This document shows positions 11,156-41,446 of a stretch of 64,000 nt of DNA, in pieces. Positions within the stretch are counted from its first letter, which is position 1; every line of letters begins with the position of its first letter. The translations under genes and the position numbers were made by a program. This DNA comes from Phycisphaerae bacterium (GTDB taxonomy: Bacteria; Planctomycetota; Phycisphaerae; UBA1845): NCBI GenBank assembly GCA_963666835.2, contig CAXXGO010000006.1:2400001-2464000 (forward strand). Direction: 5' to 3'. A model generated the notes under the pieces. It was not told where the DNA came from. It worked only from the letters and a program-made list of their open reading frames with translations, and ran no database searches.

Positions 11156-11663
11156 GGTGGCCGGGGTTCTCTTGAGGCACGGGCATGGTCGAGGTACGAG
11201 ACCTGCCGCCAAGGCGTGCGTCGCGCAGAGGTTGCGGCAGGTCTCGTAGCTCGACCATGCCCTACGAGAGCCAATCTCGGTAGGGTCCGCTGTGCGGACC
11301 ACAGGGCCTCGGAAGTTGCATGGCCCGGCGGGGTGGTAAGGGCTCCCGTCGCGCCGGGGGTCGGCTTATCGTGTGACACCATGTAGGCATCGCGGCAGGT
11401 CTCGTACCTCGACCGTGCCCTACGAGGGCCAATTGCCAGGCTGCCTGTTGATCATCGGCTCCCCCACGTCCAGTGGGGACAGGGTCGGATGACCCGCCAG
11501 GATTCGGAGCACACGCCAAACTCAAAAGGACGTGGGCCACCCTGCCTAAACTCAAAAGGACGTGGGCTACCCTGTCGGTCCGCACAGCGGATCCCACGGA
11601 GGCTACTTTGTCCGTGCGTCACGCAGAGGTCGCGGCAGGTCTCGTGCCTCGACCGTGCCCTAC
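11156..11663. repeat. Mosaic cluster of palindromic REP-like elements (three sequence types)
   Basis: Type-1 core at about 11178-11207 (inverted), 11236-11265, 11394-11423 and 11634-11663. Type-2 GTAGGGTCCGCTGTGCGGACC at 11280-11300, with an inverted variant at about 11577-11597. A 30-bp direct duplication AAACTCAAAAGGACGTGGGC(C/T)ACCCTG at 11518-11574. Confidence 0.85.
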
Positions 11664-11674
11664 CGGCTTACGCG

Positions 11675-11986
11675 TCATACCTCCTCGACGAAGATCACGC
11701 GGACCAGGTCTGTGAGGGTGCGGCCCATGTGTTTGTCTTTCGGGCCGGAGGGAATGAAGACGCCGTCGCCGGGACCGTAGTTGACCACCTCGTTTTCGTA
11801 GCGGATCTCGAATCGTCCTTCCAAGACCATGCCGATGTGGCCCTTCTCGCACCAGTGGGGCTCCATCTCACCGGTGTACTCGACCATCCGTAACTGCTTC
11901 CCGTCGTGTCGGTGGGCCTTGAAACGCAGGCCCGGCATCGGCGATTGCCACTCGATCGAATCGAAATCTACCAGGTATTGACTCAT
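11675..11986 (-). CDS. Cupin-domain protein
   Basis: HWCEKGHIGMVLEG...GPGDGVFIP...H. The ATG at 11986 overlaps the upstream stop (ATGA). Confidence 0.8.
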   Translation of the reverse strand: MSQYLVDFDSIEWQSPMPGLRFKAHRHDGKQLRMVEYTGEMEPHWCEKGHIGMVLEGRFEIRYENEVVNYGPGDGVFIPSGPKDKHMGRTLTDLVRVIFVEEV

Positions 11987-13563
11987 CGTTGTTCTTCCTT
12001 TTCTTGGGGAGGTTTTGCATTTTTGAGAACCAGGGCGCCGGTCGGACACGCCTCGACGCACTGCCGGGCGGTCTTAGCCAACGCCTCGGCCATCGACTTG
12101 TTGAGCGGCACGCCGACCCGGACGTCGAATCCGCGGCCGATGAATGTGAGCCCGATGTCCTCGCCGGCTTCCGCCGCGATCCGCACGCACAATCCGCAGA
12201 GGATGCACTTGCCCGGTTCGTAGATGACGTCGCCGTGTTGAGCGTGCCGTTGCAGCTTCTGCCGGTATCCGGAGAACCGCTTCCCCTTCACGCCATAGGC
12301 CTCGGCGTAACGCCGCAGCCGGCAGTCGTTCGGTTTGCCGCAGTCACAGTGCAGGCACCGGGCCGCCTCGGTGCGGGCTTGTTCTTCCGTAAGATCTTGG
12401 CCTTCAGCCGCCCGGCCGCTACGGTTGGATCCGGCGGCAAGTTGCTCGATTTCCTCTTCCGCCAGACGCCCGGCCCGCACGTTGTATATTGCCCGAGAGC
12501 CCGTCACGGGATCGCCCCGCAGGTATTGGCAGATGCTCGCTACGGCGGCTTTTGCGTCGGCCAGGGTACGGATCACCAGCTTGCTGCTGTGTCGAATTTC
12601 CCCGGCCGCGAAGACTCCGGGCTGGTCGGTCTCGTGATTCTCAGCGTTTACCGTGACGCCGACGCCAACCGGCGCGCCTGCGCTTCCATCCTCATCTGGT
12701 TTCGGCGCGCCGGTGGCAATCAGAACGGCGTCGTATTCAGCTCGCAGATCTGCAAGTTGCTTCTTCCCGTTGACCTCCGTATTCAAATGGAAGACCGCAC
12801 CCATTCGCTCGATTACGGCGATCTCGGCGTCCACCACCGACTGAGGCAGTTCGTCGGCGTCGAACCGAGTTCGGAGCGTGCCGCCCGGTTCATTCCGGCG
12901 ATCAAACAAGGTACAGTCATGCCCTTCCTGGAGCAAGTGATAAGCGGCCGTCAGACCCGCCGGACCTGCTCCGACGATTGCTATCTTCTTACCGCTACTC
13001 GGCTTACACGGCGGCAGGTAGGGCGACGCCGACGCCAGATCCAGGTCGGCCACGAGTCTCTTGATCAGGCAGATCGCCGGGGCCGAGTCGAGATGGCTGC
13101 GGTGGCAAGCGCGCTCGCACGGCTCCGGGCAGATTCGCCCAAGCACCGCTGGTAGGGCGATGTCCCGCTTGACGGTGACGATAGCCTCATCGAACCGGCC
13201 GGCGGCCACCTGGCGGAGCATTAACGGGATGTCCAGATGGGCCGGGCAGGTGCTCTGGCAGGGGGCTACGCAGTCGCCGACGTGATTGCTCAGCAGCAGC
13301 TCCAAACCGATCTTGCGGATCCGGCGGATCTCGGCGGTCTCGCTCTCGATTCTCATGCCCTCTTCGGCTTTGGTTGCGCAGGACGGCACGAGTCGATCCG
13401 ATCCTTCCGCACGAACCACGCAGAGCATGCAGGCCGTGGCCGGGGGGTGTCCGGGGCGATAGCAGAGCGCGGGTATGTCCACGCCGAGCTGCCGCGCCGC
13501 GTCCAACACAGTGCCACCTTCGGGCACTTCTACCTCTCGACCGTCAATGTGCAGGCGGGGCAT
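11983..13563 (-). CDS. 2Fe-2S / GltD-like Fe-S flavoprotein with a C-terminal ferredoxin domain (NuoG/HydA N-terminal-like, no catalytic domain)
   Basis: IPALC...CMLCVV...SC 2Fe-2S; APCQSTCP...GRICPEPCERAC; GAGPAG FAD motif; RCLHCDC, CILCGLC and CVEACPTGAL. Confidence 0.85.
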   Translation of the reverse strand: MPRLHIDGREVEVPEGGTVLDAARQLGVDIPALCYRPGHPPATACMLCVVRAEGSDRLVPSCATKAEEGMRIESETAEIRRIRKIGLELLLSNHVGDCVAPCQSTCPAHLDIPLMLRQVAAGRFDEAIVTVKRDIALPAVLGRICPEPCERACHRSHLDSAPAICLIKRLVADLDLASASPYLPPCKPSSGKKIAIVGAGPAGLTAAYHLLQEGHDCTLFDRRNEPGGTLRTRFDADELPQSVVDAEIAVIERMGAVFHLNTEVNGKKQLADLRAEYDAVLIATGAPKPDEDGSAGAPVGVGVTVNAENHETDQPGVFAAGEIRHSSKLVIRTLADAKAAVASICQYLRGDPVTGSRAIYNVRAGRLAEEEIEQLAAGSNRSGRAAEGQDLTEEQARTEAARCLHCDCGKPNDCRLRRYAEAYGVKGKRFSGYRQKLQRHAQHGDVIYEPGKCILCGLCVRIAAEAGEDIGLTFIGRGFDVRVGVPLNKSMAEALAKTARQCVEACPTGALVLKNAKPPQEKEEQR

Positions 13564-13634
13564 TCAGGTTGAACTCCGGTTTCGCTTGCTATTGGCCGTT
13601 CGGGTCATTGTCCGCCGTCTCCAATCCTCTGGAA

Positions 13635-16439
13635 TCAGACCACCTCAATGGCGTCTTCCGGACACTTCGTTCTGCAGATGTCACACCGCGTGCATTTCTC
13701 GGCGTCGATTTCGTGTTTCCGGTATGGGGTGAAACCGATGGCATCGTCCGGACAGTGCTGCGCGCACAACGTACAACCGGTGCAAGCGTCCGTTACGCGG
13801 TACGTGATCAGAGCCTTGCACTTGCCGGCGGGGCAGCGGCCGTCGAGATGTGCTTCGTACTCCTCGCGGAAGTACCGCAGGGTGGAGAGCACCGGGTTCG
13901 GCGCGGTCTTGCCCAATCCGCAGAGGCTTGCTTTCTTGATGGCGTGGGCGAGTTCTTCGAGCGTGTCCAGGTCGCTCGGATGCCCACGGCCCTCGCAGAT
14001 GCGGTTCAGGATGTCCAACATACGGCGCGTGCCGATTCGGCAGTACGTACACTTGCCGCACGAGTGGTCTTGGGTGAAGGCCAGGAAGTACCGGGCGATG
14101 TCAACCATGCAGTCGGTATCGTCGAGCACCACGAGCCCGCCGGACCCCATGATCGCCCCGACCTCGGCCAGGGCTTCGTAATCCACTGGCGTATCGGCCA
14201 GGAATGCCGGCACGCATCCGCCCGAGGGCCCGCCGATCTGGACGGCCTTGAACTGGCGATCGTCCTTGATGCCTCCGCCAATCTCCTCGACGATCCGGCG
14301 GACGGTAACGCCCATGGGCACTTCGATCAGCCCGCCGCGTTTGACCTTGCCGGCTAGGGCGAAAACTTTCGTGCCTTTGCTCTTGTCCGTGCCGAGTGCA
14401 GCGAAGGAGTCGGCTCCGTGGCGGATAATCCACGGCAGGGTGGTGTAAGTTTCGACGTTGTTGACCAGGGTGGGTTTGTTGCGCAGGCCCTGATCGGCCG
14501 GGAAGGGTGGCCGCAGCCTCGGCGAACCGCGCTTGCCTTCGATGGACGCGAGTAGAGCGGTTTCCTCTCCGCACACGAACGCCCCGGCGCCCTCCATAAT
14601 ATTGAGCCGCAGACTCAACCCGGTTCCGAGGATGTTGTCGCCGAGATACCCGCGCTGTTCACACTCGTGAATCGCCCCGCGGATTCGTTCCACGGCCAGC
14701 GGGTACTCGGCCCGGATGTAAAGGTAGCCCTCGCGGGCTCCAACGGCGAAGGCTGCTATGGCGATCCCCTCGATAACTCGAAACGGGAATGATTCCATCA
14801 ACATCCGGTCCATGAACGCCCCGGGGTCGCCCTCGTCGCCGTTGCAGATGATGTACTTCAGTTCGCCCTTCGCTTCGCGCACCCGCGACCATTTCAACCC
14901 GGTGGGGAATCCGGCGCCGCCGCGTCCGCGCAGCCCGCTTCGGGATACTTCGGCGATGACGTCTTCCGGTGACATGTCATTGACGCAATGCGCGAGAGCT
15001 TTGAACCCGTCGTTTCTCAAATACTCGTCAAGATCCGTCGGGTCGATCTGCCCGCAATGTTCCGTGGCGATGTGTTTCTGAGGACCGAGAAACGCCGCAA
15101 CCGGGGGGTCGCGAAGTTCGATAGCTCTTTCAGTGATCGGTGTCGCTTGCCCGTCCCGGCGGACCTTCTGAGCTACGGTCGTCAACGCGGCCGTGATCCG
15201 TCGGCGGGTACCGGTTGGGCGAAAATGTCGGAGGACGATTGCCGCGGCGTTTTCCGGACCGACTCCCGCATACAACGCGGCCGGCTTCCCCGGGATCACC
15301 GTCTCGACTAAGGGCGTCTGATGACACATTCCCACGCAACCGACGCGTTTGATGTGGACCCTCGATCCCGTGGCCGCAACCGCTTGTTCGAGTGCTTGAT
15401 GAACCTTGCCGCTGCCGCCGGCCACGCAACACGAGCCCAGCCCGATCCGGATCTCTCCGAGCAGGGGGGCGGTCTCGCGGTCCTCCGAAGGAAGAGGCGG
15501 ACGGGGACGACAAACATCGCCGTCGGCGGCAGCGCGGGCGGCGTCCAAAGCGTCCGGCACGGCATCGGGGGACAGGTGGCCGAACGTGGCGTCGTCGATC
15601 TGGGCGACCGGAGCCAGCGTGCAGCACCCCATGCACGCCACCTGCTCAACGGTAAACTCCCCGGTCGGATCCGTGTCAGTATCGGCAGCAATGCCCAACT
15701 CGCGACGCAGCTCGTCCGTGATGGCCTGGGCCCCGGCGACATGACAAGCAGTTCCATGGCACACCTTGACGATGTGCCGGCCCACCGGCGAATGCCGAAA
15801 CTGGGTGTAGAACGACGCGACCCCGGCGATCCGCGCCGGAGTGATCTCGGTGAGGGCGCAAATACGGGCGATGGCGTCCGGGTGCAAGTAACGGTAATGA
15901 TCCTGCACGGCCTGCAGGATGGGGATCGTCGCCTCGGGCGATCGCCCGAACCGGCTGATGACCTCGTCGACAAACCCCAAGTCGATTGCCTGGGCCTTGC
16001 AGGCATCGCACGGTTTGTGTGCCTCGGCCGGGCCGGTGGTTCGCCTCCGGCGCGTGGAGGCACGTTTCTCCCAGATGGCTCGGTGGGCGGCGATGGCCTT
16101 TGCGGTTGGAACCCGTCGGCCACCCAACCGGACCGACCACTTGGCGCCAATCAGCAAAAGCACGGCCGATATGACCAGGACGCGGGTCTCCTTGGCGACA
16201 CGCTTGTCTCGTTCGAGGGAGGCTTCCGTCTGGCGGTCCCACTCGGCCACTAACGCGGCGGATTGGGAGTCGTCTTCTCGGGCAAGTTCGGTTAGCTCGT
16301 CGATCCGCTGTTTCTCCGCTGCGATTCGGCCGACGGCGGCGGAATAGCCGACGATCATCACGCCGATGGTCGCGAAGGTGGCGATTGCTGCCGCCCCGGC
16401 CAGCAGGCGAGCGATAAGCCGTTGGGTGTCGCGACTCAT
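13635..16439 (-). CDS. Membrane-anchored NuoE-thioredoxin-like 2Fe-2S-NuoF-2x[4Fe-4S] fusion (HydC/HydB-like NADH oxidoreductase)
   Basis: Two N-terminal hydrophobic helices; VCHGTAC...CMGCC; GSCC...GCVGMC; GRGGAGFP, NGDEGDPGAFMD, CGEETAL, GGPSGGC, SCGKCTYCR; CTGCTLC..CP and CTRCDIC..CP. Confidence 0.92.
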   Translation of the reverse strand: MSRDTQRLIARLLAGAAAIATFATIGVMIVGYSAAVGRIAAEKQRIDELTELAREDDSQSAALVAEWDRQTEASLERDKRVAKETRVLVISAVLLLIGAKWSVRLGGRRVPTAKAIAAHRAIWEKRASTRRRRTTGPAEAHKPCDACKAQAIDLGFVDEVISRFGRSPEATIPILQAVQDHYRYLHPDAIARICALTEITPARIAGVASFYTQFRHSPVGRHIVKVCHGTACHVAGAQAITDELRRELGIAADTDTDPTGEFTVEQVACMGCCTLAPVAQIDDATFGHLSPDAVPDALDAARAAADGDVCRPRPPLPSEDRETAPLLGEIRIGLGSCCVAGGSGKVHQALEQAVAATGSRVHIKRVGCVGMCHQTPLVETVIPGKPAALYAGVGPENAAAIVLRHFRPTGTRRRITAALTTVAQKVRRDGQATPITERAIELRDPPVAAFLGPQKHIATEHCGQIDPTDLDEYLRNDGFKALAHCVNDMSPEDVIAEVSRSGLRGRGGAGFPTGLKWSRVREAKGELKYIICNGDEGDPGAFMDRMLMESFPFRVIEGIAIAAFAVGAREGYLYIRAEYPLAVERIRGAIHECEQRGYLGDNILGTGLSLRLNIMEGAGAFVCGEETALLASIEGKRGSPRLRPPFPADQGLRNKPTLVNNVETYTTLPWIIRHGADSFAALGTDKSKGTKVFALAGKVKRGGLIEVPMGVTVRRIVEEIGGGIKDDRQFKAVQIGGPSGGCVPAFLADTPVDYEALAEVGAIMGSGGLVVLDDTDCMVDIARYFLAFTQDHSCGKCTYCRIGTRRMLDILNRICEGRGHPSDLDTLEELAHAIKKASLCGLGKTAPNPVLSTLRYFREEYEAHLDGRCPAGKCKALITYRVTDACTGCTLCAQHCPDDAIGFTPYRKHEIDAEKCTRCDICRTKCPEDAIEVV

Positions 16440-17404
16440 ACGCCACCTCGGTCCGGCTGGGGCACCGTGGAGGGCAGGTTGATCGGCTCACGGGGGCACG
16501 AGGCAAAGCAGCGGGCACAGTAAAGGCACGATGACGGCACCGCCCGCATTTGCTCGATGGCGCCAAGAGGGCACGATTCAACGCAGAGGCCGCAGTCCAA
16601 CTCCTTGTCCGGGGTGATGGTTACGCCCTTCCACGAAAAACGTGCGAGAATCGCCAGGATCGCTCCGTATGGACAAAGATACCGACAGTACGGCCGGCCC
16701 ACGAACAGACCGAGCGCGAGCAGCCCCCCTCCGACGAGCATCATGTTGCCCGGGCCCGCAAACCGGAAGAAACCTACAAACGGGTCGAACCGGCAGATGA
16801 TGAACTCGCGATCGACCGCCGGGGCGACGGCATACCACACGGCCAGGATCAGGTAAGCATACTTCAACGTCCCGAGAGCCTTGTCCAACCGGCGTGGAAC
16901 CTGCACCGGTTTGAGCAGCACCAAATCCTGGATCGCTCCGAGCGGACACACTCCGCCGCAGAACACGCGCCCGATCAGCAAAGCCGCAATGAGCGGCAGA
17001 AAGAAGAACACCAGCACGACGAACGGGACCGTGTAACTTGCGTCCGTAAGGGCCACCGTGACGTTTTGGATAGCGCCAATCGGGCACACGCAACCCTCTC
17101 GATAGAACCCGAAGTACAGCAGGCAGCCGACGGTCAGGACTACGAGCCAGTTGCGGCTGCGGCGGCCGAGCACTATCCAGGCCGAGAGCCCCATCGCCAG
17201 GGCCAAGAGCAGAGCGTCCACGGCGCTCCACCAAGCCGCCTTAGGCTGCGGATGCTGCACCGGGGGCGTTACATATCCGTTGCCGATGTCGGCATCCGGC
17301 GGAACGACGTCCACCTCTCGCGTATACTCGGCGCCGAACGAGCCGATCGGAGTTATGAAGGAGATTGCGAGAATGAGCAAGACCGCCAGAGATACCTGTT
17401 TCAC
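16436..17404 (-). CDS. Membrane 4Fe-4S-binding protein (NapH/MauN/RdxA-like)
   Basis: About 5 TM helices after an N-terminal hydrophobic leader; CVCPIG, FCGGVCPLG, YCRYLCPYG and C-terminal ferredoxin motifs. Confidence 0.85.
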   Translation of the reverse strand: MKQVSLAVLLILAISFITPIGSFGAEYTREVDVVPPDADIGNGYVTPPVQHPQPKAAWWSAVDALLLALAMGLSAWIVLGRRSRNWLVVLTVGCLLYFGFYREGCVCPIGAIQNVTVALTDASYTVPFVVLVFFFLPLIAALLIGRVFCGGVCPLGAIQDLVLLKPVQVPRRLDKALGTLKYAYLILAVWYAVAPAVDREFIICRFDPFVGFFRFAGPGNMMLVGGGLLALGLFVGRPYCRYLCPYGAILAILARFSWKGVTITPDKELDCGLCVESCPLGAIEQMRAVPSSCLYCARCFASCPREPINLPSTVPQPDRGGV

Positions 17405-18066
17405 TCGGTGCCCCCTGTTACGTCGATGTGCGGATCATCCGTGCCGTGCGGCGCTTCGTTTGCGCGGGTGACGGTTAGAGCCATCTTCTCCTTTGATGTC
17501 ATAGCAATGGCATCTTCCGGACAGGCCATGGCGATGGCACAGCGGTTGCAATCGACACAAAGGTCATACCGCACTTCCAGACGAAGCGATCCCAACCCGG
17601 CGGGCTCCTTACACGCCATGACGCACTTGCCGCATCCGTTGCACAGCTTCTCGTCGATCGTGTAGTCGTAGAAGTTGTTCAGCGGGTCGTCCGGGTCGAC
17701 GTCTCCGATCGGGTTGCGGCGGATGGCGTCTCGCGGGCAGAGTCGGCGAGTGGGTAGACCGTCGCGGCCTATCTCGCTGGTTACATCGAAATACCCCGGG
17801 CAAATGCAGCAGCGCCCGCACTTGGCGAACTCGTTGACGGCGCGCACGGCTGACAGCGGCAGAACGCAGGTCGTAGCGCATTTGTCGCAGAAGGGGACTC
17901 CCGTCGCTCCAAGCCGGATATTGATGCACTTGGCCGGGTCGATCAGCCAGACGCCCTCGGCCCCGGCGCGGTTGGCCAGGTAGATGAGCGGTCCGCCGAC
18001 CGCGAGTGCACCCACCCCGCGCGCGGCATACTTGAGAACGTCCCTGCGGGTCGGCTCTTCGTTCAT
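17401..18066 (-). CDS. Tat-signal polyferredoxin (NapG/MauM-like)
   Basis: TRRDVLK twin-arginine leader with a hydrophobic stretch; multiple Cys motifs (CDKC..TC, CGRCCICP, CNGCGKC..AC, CVDCNRC..ACP). Confidence 0.8.
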   Translation of the reverse strand: MNEEPTRRDVLKYAARGVGALAVGGPLIYLANRAGAEGVWLIDPAKCINIRLGATGVPFCDKCATTCVLPLSAVRAVNEFAKCGRCCICPGYFDVTSEIGRDGLPTRRLCPRDAIRRNPIGDVDPDDPLNNFYDYTIDEKLCNGCGKCVMACKEPAGLGSLRLEVRYDLCVDCNRCAIAMACPEDAIAMTSKEKMALTVTRANEAPHGTDDPHIDVTGGTE

Positions 18067-18947
18067 GGCTGAGAGACCTCCTCATTAGTTTGGGTTGAGC
18101 CTTTCGGCTCGACTCCTTCGCTCTCGCTGAGCGGGGCGAACACGTGAATGCGAAGCTGCACCGTGTCAACCACGTATATGCGGTTCTGAGAATCGATGGC
18201 CACGTCCATGTTCTTGCACACGGGGTCGAACTCTTGGGAGGCTACCACTGCGCGGAACTCCCCCGCCCCGGTATAGAGCTTCACGCGCGGGTTAGCTTTC
18301 TCGGTTACGACCACGTCTCCGTTCGCGGCGAGCGTTATATTCGATGGATTGCAGCACCCGGGGAAGTCCCCCGGGCGGCGAGTACCGAAACGCCCGAAGA
18401 AACCGAGAAGTTCGCCTTCCATAGAGTATCGTTCGATTCGGTGTTTAGCCGGGTTGGCGGCGTGGATGGTTCCCTTGTCGTCGACGCTGAAATCCAACCG
18501 GCCGTTGGGGATCATGAAGCCCTTGGTCCGGTTGTCCTTGCCGATGTTGTTTTGCCACTGTCCGGTCTTGTCGAAGCGGCGAATGCAACGGTCGCCGGAG
18601 TCGGCGACCAGGACGAAGTCGCCGTAGAACCCGATCGCAGTGACTAACCGGAGTCGCTCCTCGTCTTGCCAGAGATCAATGCGGTTGCCGGCGGCGTCGA
18701 ACATCTCCAGTTGGCCCGGTTCGCCGACGAAGACGGTGCCGTCGGCGCGGACCGCGACGCATTGGGCCGGCCTATCCGTGGACCAGCTTCGCTGCAGTTC
18801 GCCAAGGTTGTTGAACACCTTGATGGAGCTGTCACCTGCGGCATACACGAGCCCGGGGCTGTCGACCGCGATGCCCCGCAGCGCCTGTGCGAACTGCTCC
18901 GGACCGGAGCCCTTGCCGCTGATGGTCAACACCTGGCGATATTCCAT
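18063..18947 (-). CDS. NHL-repeat beta-propeller protein
   Basis: GxGPEQF..GIAVD..G.VY.AD-type repeats; GCCNP motif. Confidence 0.8.
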   Translation of the reverse strand: MEYRQVLTISGKGSGPEQFAQALRGIAVDSPGLVYAAGDSSIKVFNNLGELQRSWSTDRPAQCVAVRADGTVFVGEPGQLEMFDAAGNRIDLWQDEERLRLVTAIGFYGDFVLVADSGDRCIRRFDKTGQWQNNIGKDNRTKGFMIPNGRLDFSVDDKGTIHAANPAKHRIERYSMEGELLGFFGRFGTRRPGDFPGCCNPSNITLAANGDVVVTEKANPRVKLYTGAGEFRAVVASQEFDPVCKNMDVAIDSQNRIYVVDTVQLRIHVFAPLSESEGVEPKGSTQTNEEVSQP

Positions 18948-18965
18948 CGCATCTCTCCGAACCCG

Positions 18966-20231
18966 CTAATCCGCCGTCTTGCCGACGTCGAGGCACATTA
19001 GCTTGCGCATGTTTCGAATGATGAGCTTGCCGTCCGACAGACTGAGCGGGGCCCACACGTCCGGACCGGTTAGGAGCTGGGCGCTGGCCAGCTCGCGATA
19101 CTCCGATACGTTTGCCTCGAGCAACCGGAGCATTCCGGTTTTACCTTCGAGAATGTAGAACATCCCGTCGGCCAGGATGTAGCTGCCCAATCCGAACGAG
19201 GCGTGCCCCTGGCTGGTCCAGACCTGTTCCCCTTTCACGTTCAGGCAGGTGAACAGCCCGCGGCGCTTCTTGCCGACGGCAAACATGTGGTTCTCGAACA
19301 CGATCGGAGTGTGCGTCTCTGAGTTCCACTCGTCCGTTTTCAGGGTGAAGACGTGCTCGGGTTTAAACTCGTCACCGTCTTTCTTCACCCGGATCATCAC
19401 GGAGTCCGCCTCGTAGCAACTGGTCATGAACACCAGATCATCACCGACGATCAGCGGGGAAATCGGCACGGACAGGTTGAACTTCCAGGGGAACGACCAG
19501 AGCAGTCTTCCATCGTCGGCGGCAACCCCTACGATTTTCGTCAGCGTGCTGTATAGATACTGCTTGACGCCGTCAATCGTCGCGGGCATTACCGAGGCGT
19601 GAGACATCGGATCACCCTCCGGGTTGGGGGTCTTCCAGATTACGTCTCCGTTGGCCTTGTTGAACGCTACAAGCAATGCATCTCCGCCGGTAGCGATAAT
19701 CACGCGATCATCCTCGATGAGCGGGCATTGCCCGTTGTACCAGGCCGGGATGAGCGTGTTATACTCGCGCACCATGCTCTTGCGCCAGAGTTCTTCTCCA
19801 TTCTCGGCTTTAAGGCAATGGAGCACGCACTTGGGGTCCAGCGAGAAGACATATTCTCCGTCGACCGCCGGCATGGTACGCGTGATCCCGTGATTGGGCC
19901 GGATGCGTTTCTTATCTCGATAGCACCAGATCTCCTTTCCGTCGGAAAGGGCAAGGCACCGCAACAGCCACTCGTTCGTATTACGGTCGTAGTCGTTGAG
20001 ATACACCCTTCCGTCGAAGATGGCCGGTGCCGAGTAGCCCTCGCAAACCTCTGTGGTCCATAGAGTCTTCGGGCCGCCTTCCGGCCACGACCGCAACAGC
20101 CCCGTTTCAGCGGAGATCGCGTTGCGGTTCGGGCCTCGGAACTGCGGCCAGTTGTCCGCCATTGCCGTTGCGGCTGTCAGGGCGCTCCAGATTGCCAGGG
20201 CTGCCGCGTAATGCCGCGGTTGTCTGCTCAT
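18966..20231 (-). CDS. Secreted PQQ/BamB-like beta-propeller protein (P1)
   Basis: Signal peptide, NWPQFRGPNR, repeated DGKxxW Trp-docking motifs, WAPLSLSDGKLIIR. GGGAG RBS before ATG 20231. Confidence 0.88.
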   Translation of the reverse strand: MSRQPRHYAAALAIWSALTAATAMADNWPQFRGPNRNAISAETGLLRSWPEGGPKTLWTTEVCEGYSAPAIFDGRVYLNDYDRNTNEWLLRCLALSDGKEIWCYRDKKRIRPNHGITRTMPAVDGEYVFSLDPKCVLHCLKAENGEELWRKSMVREYNTLIPAWYNGQCPLIEDDRVIIATGGDALLVAFNKANGDVIWKTPNPEGDPMSHASVMPATIDGVKQYLYSTLTKIVGVAADDGRLLWSFPWKFNLSVPISPLIVGDDLVFMTSCYEADSVMIRVKKDGDEFKPEHVFTLKTDEWNSETHTPIVFENHMFAVGKKRRGLFTCLNVKGEQVWTSQGHASFGLGSYILADGMFYILEGKTGMLRLLEANVSEYRELASAQLLTGPDVWAPLSLSDGKLIIRNMRKLMCLDVGKTAD

Positions 20232-21575: not shown

Positions 21576-21619
21576 TCTCACTTGGTCACTCCCGTTAGTT
21601 AGGACTATCTGCCTGTGGC

Positions 21620-22387: not shown

Positions 22388-22501
22388 TTGCGGTTTCCTT
22401 CCTTCTGCGAATATTGGATTGCAGCCTGCTACCCTTGTTATTTCGGTCCGCCGCGGCGGGCGGATTCGCATACGCTCCACGGCGCCGGACGATATCACCA
22501 T

Positions 22502-23797: not shown

Positions 23798-23852
23798 ACC
23801 GTCCCCCAACTGGCCATACCGTCTCGCGCCGCAAGCCGCGCCGACGGGCTCG

Positions 23853-26481: not shown

Positions 26482-26536
26482 GTCAGTCTCCATACAGGTC
26501 GGGTTTCGAGAGATCGATTCTCGAGTCGGCCCCGGA

Positions 26537-29333: not shown

Positions 29334-30491
29334 TCAACTTCCACGCGCCGGCGCGGCACCGAAGCAATACAGGACCCCGTCGTCAGTGCCGATCACCATG
29401 CAGTCGGGTCCAATCGCCGGCGAGGCGGTGACCGGCGCGCCGGTCTCGAACCGCCAGGTCTTCTCCCCGGTTTCAAGGTTTATCTCGTAGACATTTCCGT
29501 CGGACGAGCCTACGAAAACGCGGCTTCCCACAACTACCGGAGACGAGTCAATCCGCGCTTTCGCCACGAAGGTCCAGATGGGGCGTCCCGTCAGCGCATC
29601 CAGCGCCCGCAGGCGCTTGTCGCGCCCGCCGACTATGATCTTCTTGGCCGTGACCGCGGCCGAGGCCATGAAAGGGAACTCGCGGTCGGGGTCCTCGTAC
29701 GTCCAGATCGTCTGCCCTTGCTTCCAGTCGACCGCCAGGACTCGTCCACCGTACGTTCCCACGAAGGCTACAGACCCGCGGATCGCGGCGGACGCGCCGG
29801 ACGGAGCTCCCATGGCGACGGTTGCCGTGGCTTTGCCATCGGACAGACGCACAACGTGGAAACGCTCGTCACAACCGACTGCGAAGGCGTGCCCCTCGGC
29901 GATTGCCGGAGAACCGTGGACGTAACCGTCGGTTCCGTACTTCCAAACCAACTCCCCAGTGTCGGCGCGGAGGCAGTAAAGGGAGCCGTCGTACGACCCG
30001 ACGAGGATGCGGCCGGCGTCGTGGTTCGGCGAGGAGATCACCTGCCCCTCAGTCTCAAAGGTCCATTGGACCTTTCCGTCCGAACGTCGGACAGCGTGAA
30101 CGAGCCCCTCGTCGTCGCCGAACACCACGAGCTCCCCAACGACCAGCGGCGACGACTGGATCGGCCCCTTCGCGGCGTACTTCCATTTGAGACTACCGTT
30201 GGTCAGATCGAGGGCGTAGAAGTGCTCGTCGTGACAACCAACGTACACGGTTGTGTCGGCGATGGCCGCCGTCGCCGTGAACGGTTCCGTTGCCTCATAC
30301 TTCCATCGCACCACCAACGTCTCGGGGAGCCTGTAACTGACCACGCCGGTTAGCGCGGGATCGCCGCGAAAGCCGGGCCAAACTGCGTCAACCGATGAGC
30401 GTTCGTCGGCGGACGCCTCCGCGCCGTTCGGACTCTGCGTAGTGGCGACCAACGCAAGCCACCCGATTGTGTTGAGCATAATCCAGCTCAT
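29334..30491 (-). CDS. PQQ-repeat beta-propeller, regular BamB/AfsK-type repeats (P8)
   Basis: WPGFRGD followed by regular SSP...V.VGS.DG.LY.L...TG...W repeats. Confidence 0.88.
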   Translation of the reverse strand: MSWIMLNTIGWLALVATTQSPNGAEASADERSSVDAVWPGFRGDPALTGVVSYRLPETLVVRWKYEATEPFTATAAIADTTVYVGCHDEHFYALDLTNGSLKWKYAAKGPIQSSPLVVGELVVFGDDEGLVHAVRRSDGKVQWTFETEGQVISSPNHDAGRILVGSYDGSLYCLRADTGELVWKYGTDGYVHGSPAIAEGHAFAVGCDERFHVVRLSDGKATATVAMGAPSGASAAIRGSVAFVGTYGGRVLAVDWKQGQTIWTYEDPDREFPFMASAAVTAKKIIVGGRDKRLRALDALTGRPIWTFVAKARIDSSPVVVGSRVFVGSSDGNVYEINLETGEKTWRFETGAPVTASPAIGPDCMVIGTDDGVLYCFGAAPARGS

Positions 30492-32262: not shown

Positions 32263-32547
32263 CAGTTCCTCGCTTTCGTACCCGTCAACAGCCGCTCGCG
32301 GGTTCCTTTTGTCACCCCGTAATCCTCCTGCCGCCCGTTTCGCGCTCAGGCGGCAAGATTCTGCGCAAGCTCATTGTATTCTAGGGCAGGATCCGTCTGC
32401 TGCGAGAGCGGCAGCGGCGTTTCACGGCGGGTCTGACATCTTCTGATAACTTCGTGAACGCCAGTTGCCCGGTTGTGCTCGGCACGTGGTCCCTTACCAT
32501 GATCCGCCGGATGCGTCGTCCCCAGTCGGCTTGAGGATTGAGTGCCT

Positions 32548-33231
32548 ATGGCAGTCGGCTTACGTGCTGAGGCAGTTGAGAAGAGTTTTCCCGCTCGTAG
32601 CGGAGATCTCGCGGTTCTGCGCGGAGCGTCCCTGTCGCTGGCGACCGGGGAGTCTGCGGCAATCATGGGTCCGTCCGGCTCGGGTAAGAGTACCCTGTTG
32701 AACATCTTGGGTACGCTGGAAGTACCGACCGCCGGACGGGTCACTATTGACGATCGTGATCCGTTCCGCCTCGATGCACGTGAGCTGGCGCGGTTTCGCA
32801 ACGAGCGGATCGGGTTCGTTTTCCAGGATCAACACCTCCTCGCGCAGTGCTGTGTGCTGGAGAACGTTCTTCTGCCGACTCTTGCGGTACCGGGTCGACC
32901 CGACGCGTCGGATCGCGCGACCGCACTTCTCCAGCGCGTCGGTTTGGCGGATCGCCTGGACCATCTGCCGGCTGAACTCTCGGGGGGGGAGCGCCAGCGG
33001 GTCGCGATTGCTCGAGCTCTGATAAACCGGCCGGTGGTTCTTCTGGCCGATGAACCAACCGGGAACCTCGACCGGCGAACGGCCGAGAGCATCGCCGCGC
33101 TCCTCTGCGAGATCCACCGTGATGAAGGAGCCACGCTGGTAGTCGTAACCCACAGCCCCGAGTTAGCCGGCCGGTTTAGCCGCAGGTTTGAAGTTGTTGA
33201 CGGGACTCTCGTCGAACGTCAGGGGGCGTAA
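32548..33231 (+). CDS. ABC transporter ATP-binding protein (LolD/MacB-type)
   Basis: GPSGSGKS, LSGGERQRVAIARAL, LADEPTGNLD and VTH. Confidence 0.93.
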   Translation: MAVGLRAEAVEKSFPARSGDLAVLRGASLSLATGESAAIMGPSGSGKSTLLNILGTLEVPTAGRVTIDDRDPFRLDARELARFRNERIGFVFQDQHLLAQCCVLENVLLPTLAVPGRPDASDRATALLQRVGLADRLDHLPAELSGGERQRVAIARALINRPVVLLADEPTGNLDRRTAESIAALLCEIHRDEGATLVVVTHSPELAGRFSRRFEVVDGTLVERQGA

Positions 33232-33232
33232 G

Positions 33233-36200
33233 GTGCGGCTGACGACCTACATTCGTCGCAGCCTGGGCTACTACTGGCGGTCGCACCTTGCCGTTGCCCT
33301 CGGGGTGCTCACGGCCACGGGGACGTTGACCGGGGCGTTGCTCGTGGGTGATTCCATGCGGGCAAGCTTACGCGCTGAAGCGCTTGCTGGTCTGGGCAAG
33401 GTCGATTACGCGGTCACCGCTACCACGTTCTTCAACCAGCGCATGGTCCAGGGGCTCGTCGATGAGGCTGCGTCCGGAGTGGAGGTCATCCAGGCCTGTC
33501 CGGCCATTCGCGTGCGTGGCGGAATCTCTCACGCGCAGACTGGTGCCCGCGTGAACCGAGTTGGAATCCTCGGCGTAACCGACGATATCTGGGAGTTGGT
33601 TGCCTCGAACAACGGCGATCCGCCGGTCTTGGCTCAGGGAAGGGCGGTTCTGTTGAGTCGGCGTCTTGCCGAGCAACTGGGGGCGCGAGTCGGCGGTGAT
33701 GTACTGCTGCGGCTCGGTACGGTGAGCCCGATTTCGACCGAGACACTGCTTGGTCGCCGAGATGACACATCCCTGACACTTCGTGTGACGGTTCAGGGTA
33801 TTGTCTCTGAGGCGCAAGGCGGCGATTTCACGCTGGAGCCGAGACGCACGGCGCCCTACAACGCCTGGGTACCTCTTTCGGTTCTTCAGCGAGCGCTGGA
33901 CCGCCCCGATCGAGTGAACACCGTCTTGGTGAAGACTCGCACCCAGCTCAGTCCGACGGACGTCGTTGCGGAACTGCAGAACCGGCTCAGGAAGCACCTG
34001 CAGTTAAGTGATCTGGGGTTGTCACTACGAGACGACCAGGATCGCGGCTACCTTGCCTTTGAGAGCGAGGCTGTCTTGCTCGATCCGGCCGTCGAACGCG
34101 CGGCCCTGGCTACCGCCGAGGCGGTGGGGGTCACGGCCGCACCGGTGCTCACTTACTTGGCTAACAGCATTGCTGCGGTTCCCGCGGACGTGGCCTCTGC
34201 CGGCGATGGCGATTTCGGGCGACCGGGGAAGCCGGTGCTAACCGGGGCGCGTTCGATTCCATACTCGACGGTGGCGGCGTTGGATCCGACGGCGATCGGG
34301 CTATCCGGGCTAACGCTGGTTGACGGATCTCCGGCAGCGCGATTAGAGGCGGGGGACATCCTGCTGAACGAGTGGGCGGCCGGTGATCTTGGTGTGGAAG
34401 TCGGTGACCGAATTGCTCTCGATTATTACGTGAATGAACCTATGGGGCGGTTGGAATCGCGCCGTAGCGTCTTCAGGCTTCGCGGGGTCGTTCGCATGGA
34501 CCGGCTTGCGGCGGATGCGGGATTCGCGCCGTCGTATCCGGGGATTACCGACACGGCCAATCTCGGAGAGTGGGATCCGCCGTTTCCGATAGACCTTGAG
34601 CGCGTACGCGACCGGGACGAGGATTACTGGGACAAGTACAACGCGGCTCCGAAGGCGTTCATCTGTCTGAGCGATGGGCGTACGCTGTGGGCCGAAGGGA
34701 GAGAACGACTCGGTCGCGCAACGTCGATCAGGTTCGCTATTCCCCGTGCCCGAGGTTCGAGCGAGTATGCCGAGGCATTGCAGAGTGAGCTGTGCCGACG
34801 TCTTGATCCCGCTGAATTGGGTGTCACGGTTGATGCGGTAAGAGACCGGGCGCTGAAGGCCGGCGCCGGATCGACCGATTTCGGAGTGTTGTTCCTCTCG
34901 TTCAGCTTCTTCTTGATAGCGTCCGCGGCGATGTTGGTGGCTCTGTTGTTCGGCCTGGGCGCCGAACGCCGCGCCCCTGACTCCGGATTGCTGCTGGCGA
35001 CGGGATTCTCCCCACAAACGGTGGGGCGGCTGCTCGTGGCCGAGGGTGCCGTTGTTGCCGCGTTTGGGGCGGTGCTCGGGTTGGGGGCGGCGGTGGGGTA
35101 CGCGTGGCTGATGTTGGCCGGGCTGAAGTCCTGGTGGGCCGGGGCGGTCAACGCCCCATTCCTGCAACTCCACGTTTCGATTCCATCGTTGGCGATCGGT
35201 CTGGTGGCCGGCGTTATCATCGCGGTGTTCTCGATTGCGTGGTCCGTGCGCCGGTTGGTCCGACGGACTCCGTATGCTCTTCTGATGAGGGCGACCGCAT
35301 CGGATCAGCCTGTCGTTCACCGCGGGCAATCGCGTACCACCGCAGTGATCGGCGTGGTAATCTCGGTTGCGGCGGTCGGTTTGATCGGGCTGGCCGCTAC
35401 GACGGAGGTGGTATCGCCGGTTGCCGGTTTCTTCGGCGGGGGAGCTGCTCTGGTGGCTTCCGCGTTGTGCTTCTTCCGGGTCTGGCTCAGCCGGGGTTCT
35501 CGAACGCTGTTCGTACGGCCGGGATATGGCGCGGTCTTGTGGCTTGGGGTCAGGAATGCTCCACGCAATCCGGGGCGGAGTGTTCTGGTTTCCGGGCTGA
35601 TCGCCTCGGCGTCGTTTGTGATTGCTGCCATCGGGGCGATGCATGTGGAACCCGATACAGATGCGACGAGCCGGTATTCATCCACCGGTGGGTTTGCGTT
35701 GGTGGCCGAGTCCGCCATTCCGTTGCCTCAAGATCTCAATACACCGGAGGGACGCGAGGACCTGGGTCTTACCGGGGCGGACGAGATTATCTCACGTGGT
35801 GTCAGGTTCATGCCATTTCGATTGCGTCCGGGAGACGAAGCCGGGTGCCGTGGGCTCTACCGACCGACCGACCCGCGGATCATCGGGGCGACAAATGAGA
35901 TGATCACGCGCGGCGGGTTCAGCTTTGTTGCTTCGCTTGCTCGGACCGATGAAGAGAAACGCAATCCCTGGACCCTGCTGAACCGCAGCTTCGCCGACGG
36001 TGCCGTCCCGGTGATCGGCGAGGAGAACGCCGTCAAATGGCAACTTCACCTGGGGCTTGGCGAGGATCTCGTTATCACCAACGATGCGGGCGAGGATACG
36101 CGTTTGCGGTTTGTGGCGTTGCTGGCGCGCAGCCCTCTCCAGGATGAGCTGATCATCTCGGAGACAGCTTTTGTCCGAGAGTTTCCTTCGATCAACGGTT

Positions 36201-36718
36201 ACGGGTTCGTTCTTGTAGAAGCGCCGGATTCCACCGCTCCCCAACTGGCGCGCGTATTGGAAGAGGAGCTTGGGGCGTTCGCGCTGGATGTCACGACGAC
36301 GAGTCAGAGGCTGCAGGATTACTCTACCGTGCAGAACACCTACCTGCGGACGTTCCAGACGCTCGGCGGGTTCGGATTGGCGCTCGGGACGGTGGGGCTG
36401 GCCGTGGTGCTGTTGCGCAACCTTGTGGAACGCCGGGGCGAATTGGCCTTGATGACCGCATTGGGTTTCTCCCGCTCGGCGGTGCGACGAATGGTGCTGG
36501 CCGAGAACACGGTGCTGGTCGTGGCGGGTCTGCTGATGGGTGTATTGCCCGCAATGGTCGCGATATCGCCTCAGTTGATGGGACGCTCTGAGCACGTGCC
36601 GTGGCTATCCCTGGCAATCACGTTTCTCGCCGTATTCGCAACCGGAATCGGAGCGGGCTGGTTGGCGTGCGGCTGGGCGTTGCGCGGTCCGCTTCTGCCC
36701 GCCCTACGTAGCGAGTGA
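33233..36718 (+). CDS. Large FtsX/MacB-type ABC permease (duplicated FtsX domains)
   Basis: Two 4-TM FtsX-like halves (ERR...LLATGFS; ERRGELALM.ALGFS) with large periplasmic loops. GTG lies 1 nt after the ATPase stop. Confidence 0.88.
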   Translation: MRLTTYIRRSLGYYWRSHLAVALGVLTATGTLTGALLVGDSMRASLRAEALAGLGKVDYAVTATTFFNQRMVQGLVDEAASGVEVIQACPAIRVRGGISHAQTGARVNRVGILGVTDDIWELVASNNGDPPVLAQGRAVLLSRRLAEQLGARVGGDVLLRLGTVSPISTETLLGRRDDTSLTLRVTVQGIVSEAQGGDFTLEPRRTAPYNAWVPLSVLQRALDRPDRVNTVLVKTRTQLSPTDVVAELQNRLRKHLQLSDLGLSLRDDQDRGYLAFESEAVLLDPAVERAALATAEAVGVTAAPVLTYLANSIAAVPADVASAGDGDFGRPGKPVLTGARSIPYSTVAALDPTAIGLSGLTLVDGSPAARLEAGDILLNEWAAGDLGVEVGDRIALDYYVNEPMGRLESRRSVFRLRGVVRMDRLAADAGFAPSYPGITDTANLGEWDPPFPIDLERVRDRDEDYWDKYNAAPKAFICLSDGRTLWAEGRERLGRATSIRFAIPRARGSSEYAEALQSELCRRLDPAELGVTVDAVRDRALKAGAGSTDFGVLFLSFSFFLIASAAMLVALLFGLGAERRAPDSGLLLATGFSPQTVGRLLVAEGAVVAAFGAVLGLGAAVGYAWLMLAGLKSWWAGAVNAPFLQLHVSIPSLAIGLVAGVIIAVFSIAWSVRRLVRRTPYALLMRATASDQPVVHRGQSRTTAVIGVVISVAAVGLIGLAATTEVVSPVAGFFGGGAALVASALCFFRVWLSRGSRTLFVRPGYGAVLWLGVRNAPRNPGRSVLVSGLIASASFVIAAIGAMHVEPDTDATSRYSSTGGFALVAESAIPLPQDLNTPEGREDLGLTGADEIISRGVRFMPFRLRPGDEAGCRGLYRPTDPRIIGATNEMITRGGFSFVASLARTDEEKRNPWTLLNRSFADGAVPVIGEENAVKWQLHLGLGEDLVITNDAGEDTRLRFVALLARSPLQDELIISETAFVREFPSINGYGFVLVEAPDSTAPQLARVLEEELGAFALDVTTTSQRLQDYSTVQNTYLRTFQTLGGFGLALGTVGLAVVLLRNLVERRGELALMTALGFSRSAVRRMVLAENTVLVVAGLLMGVLPAMVAISPQLMGRSEHVPWLSLAITFLAVFATGIGAGWLACGWALRGPLLPALRSE

Positions 36719-39919: not shown

Positions 39920-40045
39920 CCGCGGTCAGCGCCGCTGGTCGTGCCCGGTTCGGCTTGGTCCCCTTGGCACGCTGCCTGACCGGCCGGTGGTAGGTTTGCG
40001 GAACTTGGTGATCCGCTCGGCCTTTGCATGTGGAGATTGGAAGCC

Positions 40046-41251
40046 ATGCCAGAAGCGAAACGAGATAACGCCTTGCTCGTTGTGTCTCTGATCGTGGGAT
40101 TGTGCTCGGGGGCGACGTTCGCGGATTGGCCCAACTTTCGCGGCGCTCGCCATGACGGCATAAGCCTGGAGAAGAACCTGAAAACCGCGTGGACCGCTGC
40201 GCCGTCGGCTGTGTGGGACAAGTCGGTCGGTTCCGCGTTCAGCTCCTTTGCATGCGTGGGTGACCGGGTTTTCACGTGTGGAACGGCAAAGGGACGCCAG
40301 GTTGCTCTTTGCCTCAATGCCGATACGGGAGAGACCATCTGGCAAGTGCCGATCGAGGAGGCGTATTCCGAGGACGCGGGAGGAGACGGGCCGCGAGCCA
40401 CGCCCACCATCGACCAAGACCGCGTTTACGTCCTCGGAGCTCTCGGAACGCTGCTTTGCCTCGGCAGCGACACCGGTGAGCAGGTCTGGAAGTCGCGTCT
40501 TACCAATCCGCCGCAATGGGGGTACAGCGGGTCGGTTCTGATTGAAGGCGATCTGGCGATCGCTACCGGAGGGCGCGGCGATGGAGCGTTGGTTGCCTTC
40601 GACAAGATGACCGGCAAGGTAGCCTGGCGCTGCGGCGACGACATTGCCGGGTATGCGACTCCGTACCCCTTCGTTTTCGGCGGGCAGAAGTACATCGTCG
40701 GTTTCACCGGTACGTCAGCGCTGATCGCGGAGGCGAAATCCGGTCGCGAGGTCTGGCGCATGCCCTGGAAGACCGATTGGGACGTCAACGCGGCCGCGCC
40801 GATCTTCTATGAAGGACACCTCTTCCTTTCATCCGGCTACGATACCGGGTGTGCGCTTTTCAAACTGAGCAAAGACGGAGAGCGCATCGCCGCGAAGGAG
40901 GTCTGGCGTAGCAAGGTGCTGATGAGCAAGTTCCAGTCGTGCATTCTGCATGACGGCAGACTCTACGCGAGCGATCAGAAGGCCCTGGTCTGCGTGGACT
41001 TCATGACCGGCAAGGAGAACTGGAGGATCCGGCGAATCAAACACGGTACCGTGGTCCTCGCCGACGGCCACCTGTTCGTACTTACTGAGAAGGGACGGCT
41101 TCAGATTGCCAAGGTCGATCCCGCCGGTTTCCAACCGACCGCCGACGTGCCGATTCTCGACGGACGTTGTTGGACCGTTCCTGTTCTTCATCGCGGAAAG
41201 CTGTATGCGCGCAACCTCGAGCGTGTGGTCTGCCTGGACCTGAGCCGGTGA
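40046..41251 (+). CDS. Secreted PQQ/BamB-like beta-propeller protein (P11)
   Basis: TFA-DWPNFRG, GPRATP, WGYSGS and CWTVPVL..GKLYARN. Confidence 0.88.
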   Translation: MPEAKRDNALLVVSLIVGLCSGATFADWPNFRGARHDGISLEKNLKTAWTAAPSAVWDKSVGSAFSSFACVGDRVFTCGTAKGRQVALCLNADTGETIWQVPIEEAYSEDAGGDGPRATPTIDQDRVYVLGALGTLLCLGSDTGEQVWKSRLTNPPQWGYSGSVLIEGDLAIATGGRGDGALVAFDKMTGKVAWRCGDDIAGYATPYPFVFGGQKYIVGFTGTSALIAEAKSGREVWRMPWKTDWDVNAAAPIFYEGHLFLSSGYDTGCALFKLSKDGERIAAKEVWRSKVLMSKFQSCILHDGRLYASDQKALVCVDFMTGKENWRIRRIKHGTVVLADGHLFVLTEKGRLQIAKVDPAGFQPTADVPILDGRCWTVPVLHRGKLYARNLERVVCLDLSR

Positions 41252-41446
41252 TCGCAGACGGGTTGGAAACCGCGCAGCGCCAAGCCCGGATGCTCCGGAC
41301 AAGTTCTGACATGCGTGCCGGTTGATAGTGCGGTTAGCGGTGCGAAATCGAGTATGGTGTCCGGCGAGGTTTCTGTGCGCGCGGGTCGGCACCGATTGCT
41401 GTACTGAACGAGAGAACGAAGGAGCTATTGGGAGGGAAGCACTTTG

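Follow-up and report, generated by a model that had tools for sequence, protein, structure and literature searches.

A conserved six-gene bacterial operon joins an NfnABC-like core to NapH-like, Tat ferredoxin and propeller genes

The 64,000-nucleotide stretch of Phycisphaerae DNA analyzed here (the window; contig C6:2400001-2464000, from a host genome of 6.0 Mb that is 92% complete) carries on its minus strand an operon in which the genes for a soluble enzyme core of the Bfu family stand beside those for a NapH-like membrane protein, a ferredoxin with a twin-arginine translocation (Tat) signal and two propeller proteins. This six-gene system is real, conserved and undescribed in the literature searched, and it combines two known kinds of machinery, Bfu enzymes and NapGH-like membrane modules. 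The loci nearest to the operon of the window come from other Phycisphaerae.

A conserved six-gene unit

All seven open reading frames (ORFs) of the operon proposed in the initial annotation are present on the minus strand, with domain assignments consistent across Pfam and NCBIfam. The P1 propeller (20231-18966, 421 amino acids, aa) is followed by the NHL propeller (18947-18063, 294 aa), the Tat ferredoxin (18066-17401, 221 aa), the NapH-like protein (17404-16436, 322 aa), a fusion of transmembrane, NuoE and NuoF parts termed BfuC-B or BfuCB (16439-13635, 934 aa), the 2Fe-2S/GltD-like subunit BfuA (13563-11983, 526 aa) and a cupin (11986-11675, 103 aa, Pfam Cupin_2). The four overlaps of 4 nucleotides (nt) are likewise found, at 18063-66 (ATGA), 17401-04 (GTGA), 16436-39 (ATGA) and 11983-86 (ATGA), and the two remaining junctions have gaps of 18 nt (P1 to NHL) and 71 nt (BfuC-B to BfuA).

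To follow these genes elsewhere, the ferredoxin was used as query, yielding 748 relatives at E <= 1e-10, and a genome scan for such relatives gave 177 confirmed places, the best 80 of which (56 in Planctomycetota, 21 in Acidobacteriota and 3 in unassigned genomes) were examined as clade I loci. Gene order was established by tblastn, the calling of neighboring ORFs being heuristic. P1, an NHL protein with the motif GCCNP, the Tat ferredoxin, the NapH-like protein, BfuC-B and BfuA follow one another in this order at 46 of the 50 loci with room on both sides, so that the neighborhood is conserved across two phyla. The seventh gene did not hold up as a member: the cupin is absent from all 53 clade I loci whose sequence extends 600 nt or more beyond the A gene, as well as from all 88 further loci, and is a local passenger outside the conserved unit despite its overlap with the A gene. 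A methyltransferase and an APC permease were also rejected as members of the system.

The six-gene order is not due to chance. The 4-nt overlap recurs at the NHL-ferredoxin junction in 55/79 loci and at the NapH-BfuC junction in 44/70. The distribution is patchy, with the operon carried by 5 of 40 close relatives and by 8 of 300 genomes of the phylum (eight candidates scored per genome).

No terminal enzyme travels with the cluster. As the initial annotation had stated, hydrogenase, molybdopterin and heme families have no match among the seven window proteins (Pfam, NCBIfam), and no hydrogenase, molybdopterin or Nuo catalytic family was found by Pfam among the 105 nearest co-oriented neighbors out of 402 other ORFs. 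A motif scan of all non-core ORFs returned no H-cluster motif; a NiFe-like motif turned up once, in a radical SAM protein, and six unrelated loci encode multi-CxxCH proteins.

No sigma-70-type promoter was found at the operon, and terminator-like sites are at chance level (10 against 8.2 expected). The transcript may begin further upstream, because P1 sits only 33 nt behind a long array of other propeller genes.

The NADH/ferredoxin core

The 934-aa protein joins in one chain a membrane hairpin, BfuC (NuoE) and BfuB (NuoF/HydB type), and its best matches in the PDB are NfnB 9BOV (E 4e-222), 8OH5 and 9N5U. The earlier view that the chain has no catalytic subunit thereby calls for correction: the core has an NADH/FMN site, and the GltD-like gene encodes an NfnA-type subunit with matches in the same three entries. 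The BfuC domain is recognized as PF01257 (E 5e-48), while PF01512, PF10589 and Fer4_21 score above cut-off in BfuB and SLBB (E 2e-5, 24.5 bits) falls just under its cut-off of 27. Ligands for the FMN/NADH site, B1, the Zn site B2, B3/B4 and B5 are all present. Hence the features by which the Bfu family is defined, namely the BfuB domain set and the presence of BfuC and BfuA (2Fe-2S, 4Fe-4S) in one cluster, are found in the sequence of the operon. These domains were read through Pfam families that we take to correspond to the InterPro identifiers of Schut 2022.

Three marks have been described for bifurcating subunits: AFM (A/E-x-M at the NADH site), GGPSG in SLBB and Phe367 of Thermotoga maritima HydB (Losey et al., PMC7311640). 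GDPGAFM and GGPSG occur in the window BfuB, in 50 of 51 classified clade I and in 31/31 clade II B subunits; AFM and GGPSG are kept in 30/30 clade I B subunits whose partner lacks the NADP domain. Phe367 could not be mapped by a plain shift in numbering; each of the three candidate positions holds Phe in the window, as in the bifurcating Csac NfnB, and most relatives have Tyr (PPYP) at one of them. B3/B4 motifs are kept in 48/51 classified B subunits. At B5, B subunits of operons with a full A subunit carry three Cys and a Glu, as in the Zn site of Csac NfnB, and fused forms, the window included, carry four Cys and no Glu. Taken together, these domains and ligands identify the soluble core as a predicted NfnABC/StnABC relative within the Bfu family, its bifurcation motifs intact.

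Cofactor domains of the A subunit

BfuA aligns with residues 5-297 and 425-675 of Csac NfnA, the intervening ~130 residues (297-425) having no counterpart. It contains Fer2_4 and Fer4_Nqo3 domains (Pfam), and it retains the A1, A2, A3, A6 and A7 ligands and the FAD Rossmann motif, with GxGPAG and the C/C/C/K set kept and AAGE where full forms carry GGD. What it lacks is the NADP-binding domain, the A4 cluster and the C-terminal Fdh-like domain; the GGGN and YRR motifs are absent from the window BfuA and a probe for the NADP domain was negative. With the NADP-binding part of the A subunit gone, the usual third substrate site of a Bfu core is gone as well.

This loss is widespread, affecting 61 of 87 complete relatives and sparing 26. 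Among complete clade I A genes (n=55, four incomplete loci being left out of the count), 25 combine an NADP domain with separate C and B genes, another 24 pair its absence with a C-B fusion, and six are minimal forms from which the flavin insert has gone entirely. Complete clade II A genes (n=32) comprise 29 without the NADP domain, 2 that also lack the FAD fold and 1 full form. The FAD fold was lost on two separate tree branches (the six minimal forms; loci L084 and L086) with the operon retained. The A subunit itself is never dropped, and even minimal forms keep the A1, A2 and A3 ligand sets. In 23 clade I copies without the NADP domain, the A1, A3 and A6 ligands are kept in 23/23, A2 in 22-23/23 and A7 in 17-21/23 (one open-ended copy of this kind and four frameshifted full-form loci were dropped from the table). 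Identity in the FAD region falls from 69-76% to 46-48% in copies without the NADP domain, compared with 75 to 70% for the B core.

In Csac NfnA, electrons are described as following the path FAD-A7-A6-A3-A2-A1-B1 (PMC11829005). Set against this path, what the series says is that NADP(H), FAD and A7 would be dispensable and that the inner wire (A1-A2-A3-A6) is kept.

BfuB trees (quick IQ-TREE and FastTree runs with four outgroups from one genome) place the operon copies in one clade (support 99) beside the host NfnB. Minimal forms are nested within the forms without the NADP domain, and the pair of clade II copies without the FAD fold falls in another part of the tree. Although C-B fusion and NADP loss coincide in 55/55 clade I loci, their reading as one linked event is weakened because the sequences are related, the tree intermixes clades I and II, and locus L147 is fused yet full.

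A second clade and the origin of the membrane hairpin

In a second group of loci (clade II), all six genes are again present in all 8 genomes of the phylum that carry it, and the order (8/8) is P1, NHL, ferredoxin, a longer NapH-like protein, an anchored propeller P2, BfuCB and A. The same order recurs in metagenome loci.

The N-terminal hairpin of the window BfuC (transmembrane-loop-transmembrane, 16125..16415, minus strand, part of the fusion gene) belongs to clade I, where BfuC has at least one hydrophobic helix in 69/70 loci and two in 60/70. Its profile matches the N-termini of P2 (hhalign 96.2%, E 2.4e-9, 101 columns), and its hidden Markov model finds 5 of the 8 P2 genes at E <= 0.002 in a search of 25,539 segments. 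A hairpin inserted in clade II NapH was rejected as the source (hhalign 0.7%), and a search for longer proteins carrying the BfuC hairpin gave four matches, all NuoE-type. On these profile comparisons the BfuC hairpin is homologous to the N-terminus of P2. The simplest reading would be a loss of the propeller part of P2, with the remaining anchor joined to the next gene, BfuC. In locus L080 the hairpin stands alone after NapH, and no BfuCB orthologue was seen in that genome, for which no completeness value is given. The derivation of the BfuC anchor from a membrane propeller gene, with the hairpin standing alone behind NapH in L080, supports the reading of the six genes as one machine. Prediction of a complex between the NapH-like protein and the hairpin was uninformative (score 0.13, mark 0.32) and is not used as evidence.

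Iron-sulfur proteins in and across the membrane

The Tat ferredoxin matches the signal family TIGR01409 with 20 bits (cut-off 16.7), and RR lies within the first 16 residues in 77/80 relatives; the host encodes TatC. Its 17 conserved Cys suggest four [4Fe-4S] sites and a role like that of NapG or MauM.

The NapH-like protein is recognized by Fer4_5 (Pfam, E 2e-15) and reaches 44.9 bits with TIGR02163, whose cut-off is 213. It has a signal-like helix followed by five helices, two CX3CP motifs and a C-terminal ferredoxin domain in which Glu268 replaces the first Cys. Positive-inside charge counts place the CX3CP motifs and the ferredoxin domain inside and the invariant Cys trio C105, C107 and C204 outside, one loop being ambiguous. 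ExDCGxC is found in 71/73 clade I copies and the canonical Cys in 59/64 clade II copies; the outer Cys motifs are retained in 56/64 and 64/64 clade II copies. A fold search with the NapH-like model returned nothing at Z >= 5 among 48,161 chains, and PDB searches found no solved structure for the NapH family. NapF, a partner of NapH, is cytoplasmic. The first CX3CP of NapH is reported to be required for contact with NapF, and that report leaves open the role of the cytoplasmic Fe-S and CX3CP sites of NapH (PMC5928378).

The propellers P1 and NHL

P1 is a BamB/PQQ_2-like propeller of the 8-blade type (Pfam PQQ_2, E 4e-23) with a Sec-type signal peptide, as read from its sequence. Its operon orthologues are 50-75% identical to it, compared with at most 30% for paralogues of the same genome, which argues that P1 is a dedicated operon orthologue and not a spill-over from the adjoining propeller array. 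The initial annotation had called P1 a pyrroloquinoline quinone (PQQ) propeller. The protein is indeed BamB/PQQ-like, but PQQ binding finds no support: P1 scores far below the cut-offs of the PQQ enzyme families (TIGR03075, 30.6 against 480 bits; PF01011, 18.9 against 26.7), and its profile matches are weak and partial (tetrathionate hydrolase 7CQY, E 2e-11; BamB, E 7e-9; ethanol dehydrogenase, E 4e-7). As for PQQ synthesis in the 92% complete host, PqqC was not found, though the control was silent too, and no TENA-family gene was matched in the host (the control rang in 6/14). No known oxidising cofactor site was found in either propeller.

NHL carries GCCNP (C198, C199) in 73/73 full-length clade I copies. 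Its AlphaFold model (pLDDT 95) is a six-blade propeller whose best fold matches are six-blade TRIM NHL domains. P1 and NHL are fused in frame in 7/69 loci, with NHL behind the signal-bearing P1; among the best 150 library matches, 42 of 71 GCCNP proteins have a hydrophobic N-terminus; and clade II copies have an N-terminal anchor or a lipoprotein-type signal. From the fusions and the hydrophobic N-termini of GCCNP relatives, NHL most likely works outside the membrane. We infer that it is probably exported together with the Tat ferredoxin, which fits the frequent 4-nt overlap of the two genes. Separately, two GCCNP-NHL proteins (P0153 and P0156) end in a domain which, judged by eye, resembles a periplasmic solute-binding domain; this could hint at a substrate.

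Host genome and wider neighborhood

The host has a canonical NfnABC with intact NADP motif (C1:148878-155166, 1238-aa A subunit), a BfuABC beside 2-oxoacid oxidoreductase-like genes (C6:934971-940574, Por-Bfu-like) and a FeFe HydABC (C5:166807-173312). Besides the operon and NfnABC there are three other NuoF-type genes, each with partners of its own, and a complex I cluster is present. FeFe and NiFe hydrogenases are present, COX1 and Rnf/Nqr were not found (at 92% completeness), and the host looks anaerobic from this gene content. In Bythopirellula polymerisocia Pla144 (L070), the BfuCB of the operon is the sole NuoF-type match in the genome at E <= 1e-30.

The limits first set for the cluster proved too narrow. 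Across the 41 clade II loci that span 9 kb or more, the recurrent neighbors are an FtsX/MacB permease (18), a BamB-like propeller c2 (17), a propeller p3 (16), an ABC ATPase (15) and a glycosyltransferase (13). For four of these, and for the propeller domain of P2, the best matches in the host are loosely associated genes at 29.3-42.8 kb of the window: a BamB-like propeller matching c2 (29334..30491, minus strand, 35-36% identity), an ABC ATPase with a 1176-aa FtsX/MacB-type permease (32542..36718, plus strand), which together make up an ABC exporter, and two propellers matching p3 and the P2 domain (40028..42802, plus strand, 38% and 31% identity). The FtsX/MacB permease is found in 5/5 operon-bearing relatives, compared with 16/35 others. 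The neighbors give a hint of an envelope function without naming a substrate.

About eleven BamB/PQQ-like propeller genes and two DUF2092-like genes fill window 20265-32262 and 38058-43888. The six propellers nearest to P1 are mutually similar and recur in only 6-7/80 related loci.

Terpenoid genes flank five loci, and a cyclase-like gene is found in seven of the eight clade II genomes (five of the eight have it within ~15 kb on the contig of the operon), against 77/300 in the phylum sample. A terpenoid link as a requirement was rejected for clade I, the cyclase-like gene being found in 0/5 operon-bearing relatives with the one query used. The host itself has a cluster of four genes (radical SAM, DUF116-polyprenyl synthase, prenyltransferase and squalene-cyclase-like) at C1:1866156-1871892 (L169).

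On the other side of the operon, a palindromic repeat like the repetitive extragenic palindromes, with a core of ~29 nt, occurs downstream of the cupin in four copies of both orientations (11181-11663) and again at 6399-6730 in four tandem copies spaced by 85-86 nt. The latter group follows an ORF resembling pyruvate phosphate dikinase (2968-6291, named by eye), which has a long Lys/Ala-rich C-terminal tail. The ORF at 6864-8321 encodes an exported protein with no Pfam match at E 0.01, whose N-terminal part resembles, by eye, a pyroglutamyl peptidase.

Proposed mechanism and alternatives

Mechanistically, we infer that the six genes encode one membrane-attached redox machine, presumably a physical complex. 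In the cytoplasm, NAD(H) would react at the FMN of BfuCB and ferredoxin at B3/B4. The third port of the core, which in NfnABC leads via the A subunit to the NADP site deleted here, would most likely be the exit: the A-subunit wire (A1-A2-A3-A6) would pass electrons to the ferredoxin domain that the NapH-like protein exposes in the cytoplasm. If this is true confurcation, the electrons of NADH and reduced ferredoxin would be merged at about -390 mV, the midpoint of the two values of -280 and -500 mV in Schut et al. (PMC9304861). They would then cross the membrane via the inner CX3CP sites and the outer Cys trio and travel by the four-cluster Tat ferredoxin to the vicinal Cys pair of NHL, which would act together with P1 on a substrate in the periplasm. 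The presence of a second, canonical NfnABC in the same host speaks for this picture.

That the proteins form one trans-membrane chain is quite probable, and, given such a chain, an outward flow of electrons is favored with slightly more reserve. That all steps hold as written, outward confurcation included, is plausible but on balance doubtful. The conduit from NAD(H) and ferredoxin to the periplasm put forward in the initial annotation is supported in its anatomy, in its propeller partners and in the conservation of its cluster; the notion of an orphan chain without catalytic subunit calls for correction.

Several observations weigh against this picture, the full forms and the aerobic carrier being the main difficulties. 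The A wire of the 26 full forms continues to an NADP site, which obliges the membrane partner there to join elsewhere or by a side branch. An aerobic heterotroph, B. polymerisocia Pla144 (described as such in PMC7717034), carries the operon too, and there a large pool of reduced ferredoxin is less expected. In Csac NfnA the A4 and A5 clusters are described as a dead-end branch (PMC11829005), and hence conserved ligands are no proof that current runs through the wire. Clade II BfuCB has neither hairpin nor any other anchor, which makes tethering unnecessary. The window NHL lacks a signal peptide, as clade I copies generally do, and NHL is separate from P1 in 62/69 loci. Finally, P1 is absent upstream in 3/69 loci and the Bfu half in 1/53.

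Both forms would be accommodated if electrons leave by B3/B4 to the NapH-like ferredoxin domain, the membrane protein taking the place of ferredoxin. Full forms would then bifurcate NADPH to NAD+ and low-potential periplasmic electrons, and forms without the NADP domain would be simple NADH-linked reductases with a structural or vestigial A subunit. A single docking site would serve both forms, the B3/B4 motifs are nearly always kept (48/51), dead-end clusters are known in NfnA, and no soluble reduced ferredoxin is needed, which suits the aerobic carrier. Against this route stand AFM and GGPSG, kept in every B subunit whose clade I partner lacks the NADP domain (30/30) and in clade II (31/31), and an A subunit that is never dropped and holds its A1, A2 and A3 ligands even in minimal forms; we consider it distinctly unlikely. 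More improbable still is a NapH-like protein that serves as a menaquinone site, with the Bfu core reducing quinone or quinol feeding the Tat ferredoxin as in NapGH, so that the two halves would be linked via the quinone pool and not by a direct wire. Two further points against a direct chain speak for it: NapH and NosH, the membrane halves of NapGH and NosGH, are described as quinol-oxidising (PMC3475470), and the host carries menaquinone genes of the futalosine pathway (PF02621). Quinone is also the third substrate proposed for Nuo-Bfu (PMC9304861). Yet a dedicated NADH/ferredoxin input would be superfluous in a host with a complex I cluster, and the invariant Cys trio on the outer face points to a relay that passes through the NapH-like protein.

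The wiring would be identical if the chain ran inward, the propellers oxidising a low-potential periplasmic substrate and the Bfu core bifurcating to NAD+ and ferredoxin, thus conserving energy. Bfu enzymes are described as reversible (PMC9304861) and the apparently anaerobic host would suit such a scheme, but neither propeller has a known oxidising cofactor site, the host yielded neither PqqC nor a TENA-family gene, and envelope-type neighbors such as the ABC exporter and the glycosyltransferase would consume reductant more than supply it; inward flow is as improbable as the quinone site. It is very improbable, lastly, that the Bfu enzyme and the NapGH-like propeller module are merely co-regulated by a common stimulus and exchange no electrons. 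The mixing of clade I and II membrane modules in the BfuB tree implies that the halves have been exchanged, and L080 keeps the membrane half alone; against this stand a gene order that is fixed and translationally coupled across two phyla, a piece of the membrane module fused to BfuC in 69/70 clade I loci, and Bfu cores without the NADP domain that have no other evident third partner.

Returning to the outward chain, its boldest form would be a new Bfu type with a trans-membrane iron-sulfur wire as third substrate: confurcated electrons would cross the inner membrane without a quinone, by way of a NapH-family protein bearing Cys sites on both of its faces, and would supply about -400 mV to a periplasmic propeller enzyme of a new class with a vicinal-Cys active site. 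The relatives would record a stepwise change, with loss of the NADP domain, two later losses of the FAD fold and capture of the anchor from a propeller gene. Taken jointly, these two statements are rather unlikely to be right as they stand. The third partners described for the Bfu family are either cytoplasmic substrates or membrane arms of the complex I type; if true, the proposal would extend the family by a branch directed to the periplasm, provide a direct test of the roles of cytoplasmic Fe-S and CX3CP sites in the NapH/NosR family, and tie a function to some of the unexplained BamB-like propellers, many of which are found in planctomycetes. The natural deletion series reveals dispensable cofactors, and the cultured type strain B. 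polymerisocia Pla144 (DSM 104841) has the operon in the form found in the window.

Relation to known systems

No description of the six-gene system was found in the open literature, subscription journals lying outside this coverage. The parts of the Bfu classification consulted (PMC9304861) contain no type with a NapH-like or propeller partner, and 17 clades there have no assigned function. By sequence the locus belongs to the Bfu family, but the NADP domain of Nfn-Bfu is absent and the NapH family cut-off is missed.

The closest relatives of the core are NfnABC and StnABC (PDB 9BOV/9BP5, 8OH5, 9N5U; PMC9304861, PMC11829005), which give the best PDB matches and share the BfuBC cofactor motifs. 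The A subunit resembles that of NfnABC in its GltD-like insert with A6, A7 and the FAD motif, C106/C145/C149/K168 corresponding to C108/C147/C151/K170, and it lacks A4, as does the T. sibiricus enzyme. Unlike NfnABC, the window has no NADP-binding or Fdh-like domain, its C and B are fused, a hairpin precedes C, and the core is fixedly linked to four membrane or exported genes.

The membrane half resembles NapGH, NosGH and MauMN, and NosR/RdhC, in pairing a Tat four-cluster ferredoxin with a polytopic protein that has two CX3CP motifs and a C-terminal ferredoxin domain. It departs from these systems in the NapH score (44.9 against 213 bits), the extra signal-like helix, the outer Cys trio and the Glu in the first Fe-S motif, and in having no NapA, NosZ, MADH or RdhA partner among the scanned neighbors; a Bfu donor and propellers are found instead. 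P1 shares PQQ_2-type repeats with PQQ dehydrogenases, BamB and tetrathionate hydrolase, but is ~400 aa long and matches them partially. The predicted Nuo-Bfu and Mbh-Bfu complexes (Schut et al. 2022) are similar in plan, with BfuABC within an operon of membrane subunits and fed via the A wire; as described there, they differ in having complex I-type antiporter subunits, with no NapH-type or periplasmic propeller partner in the parts of that account consulted.

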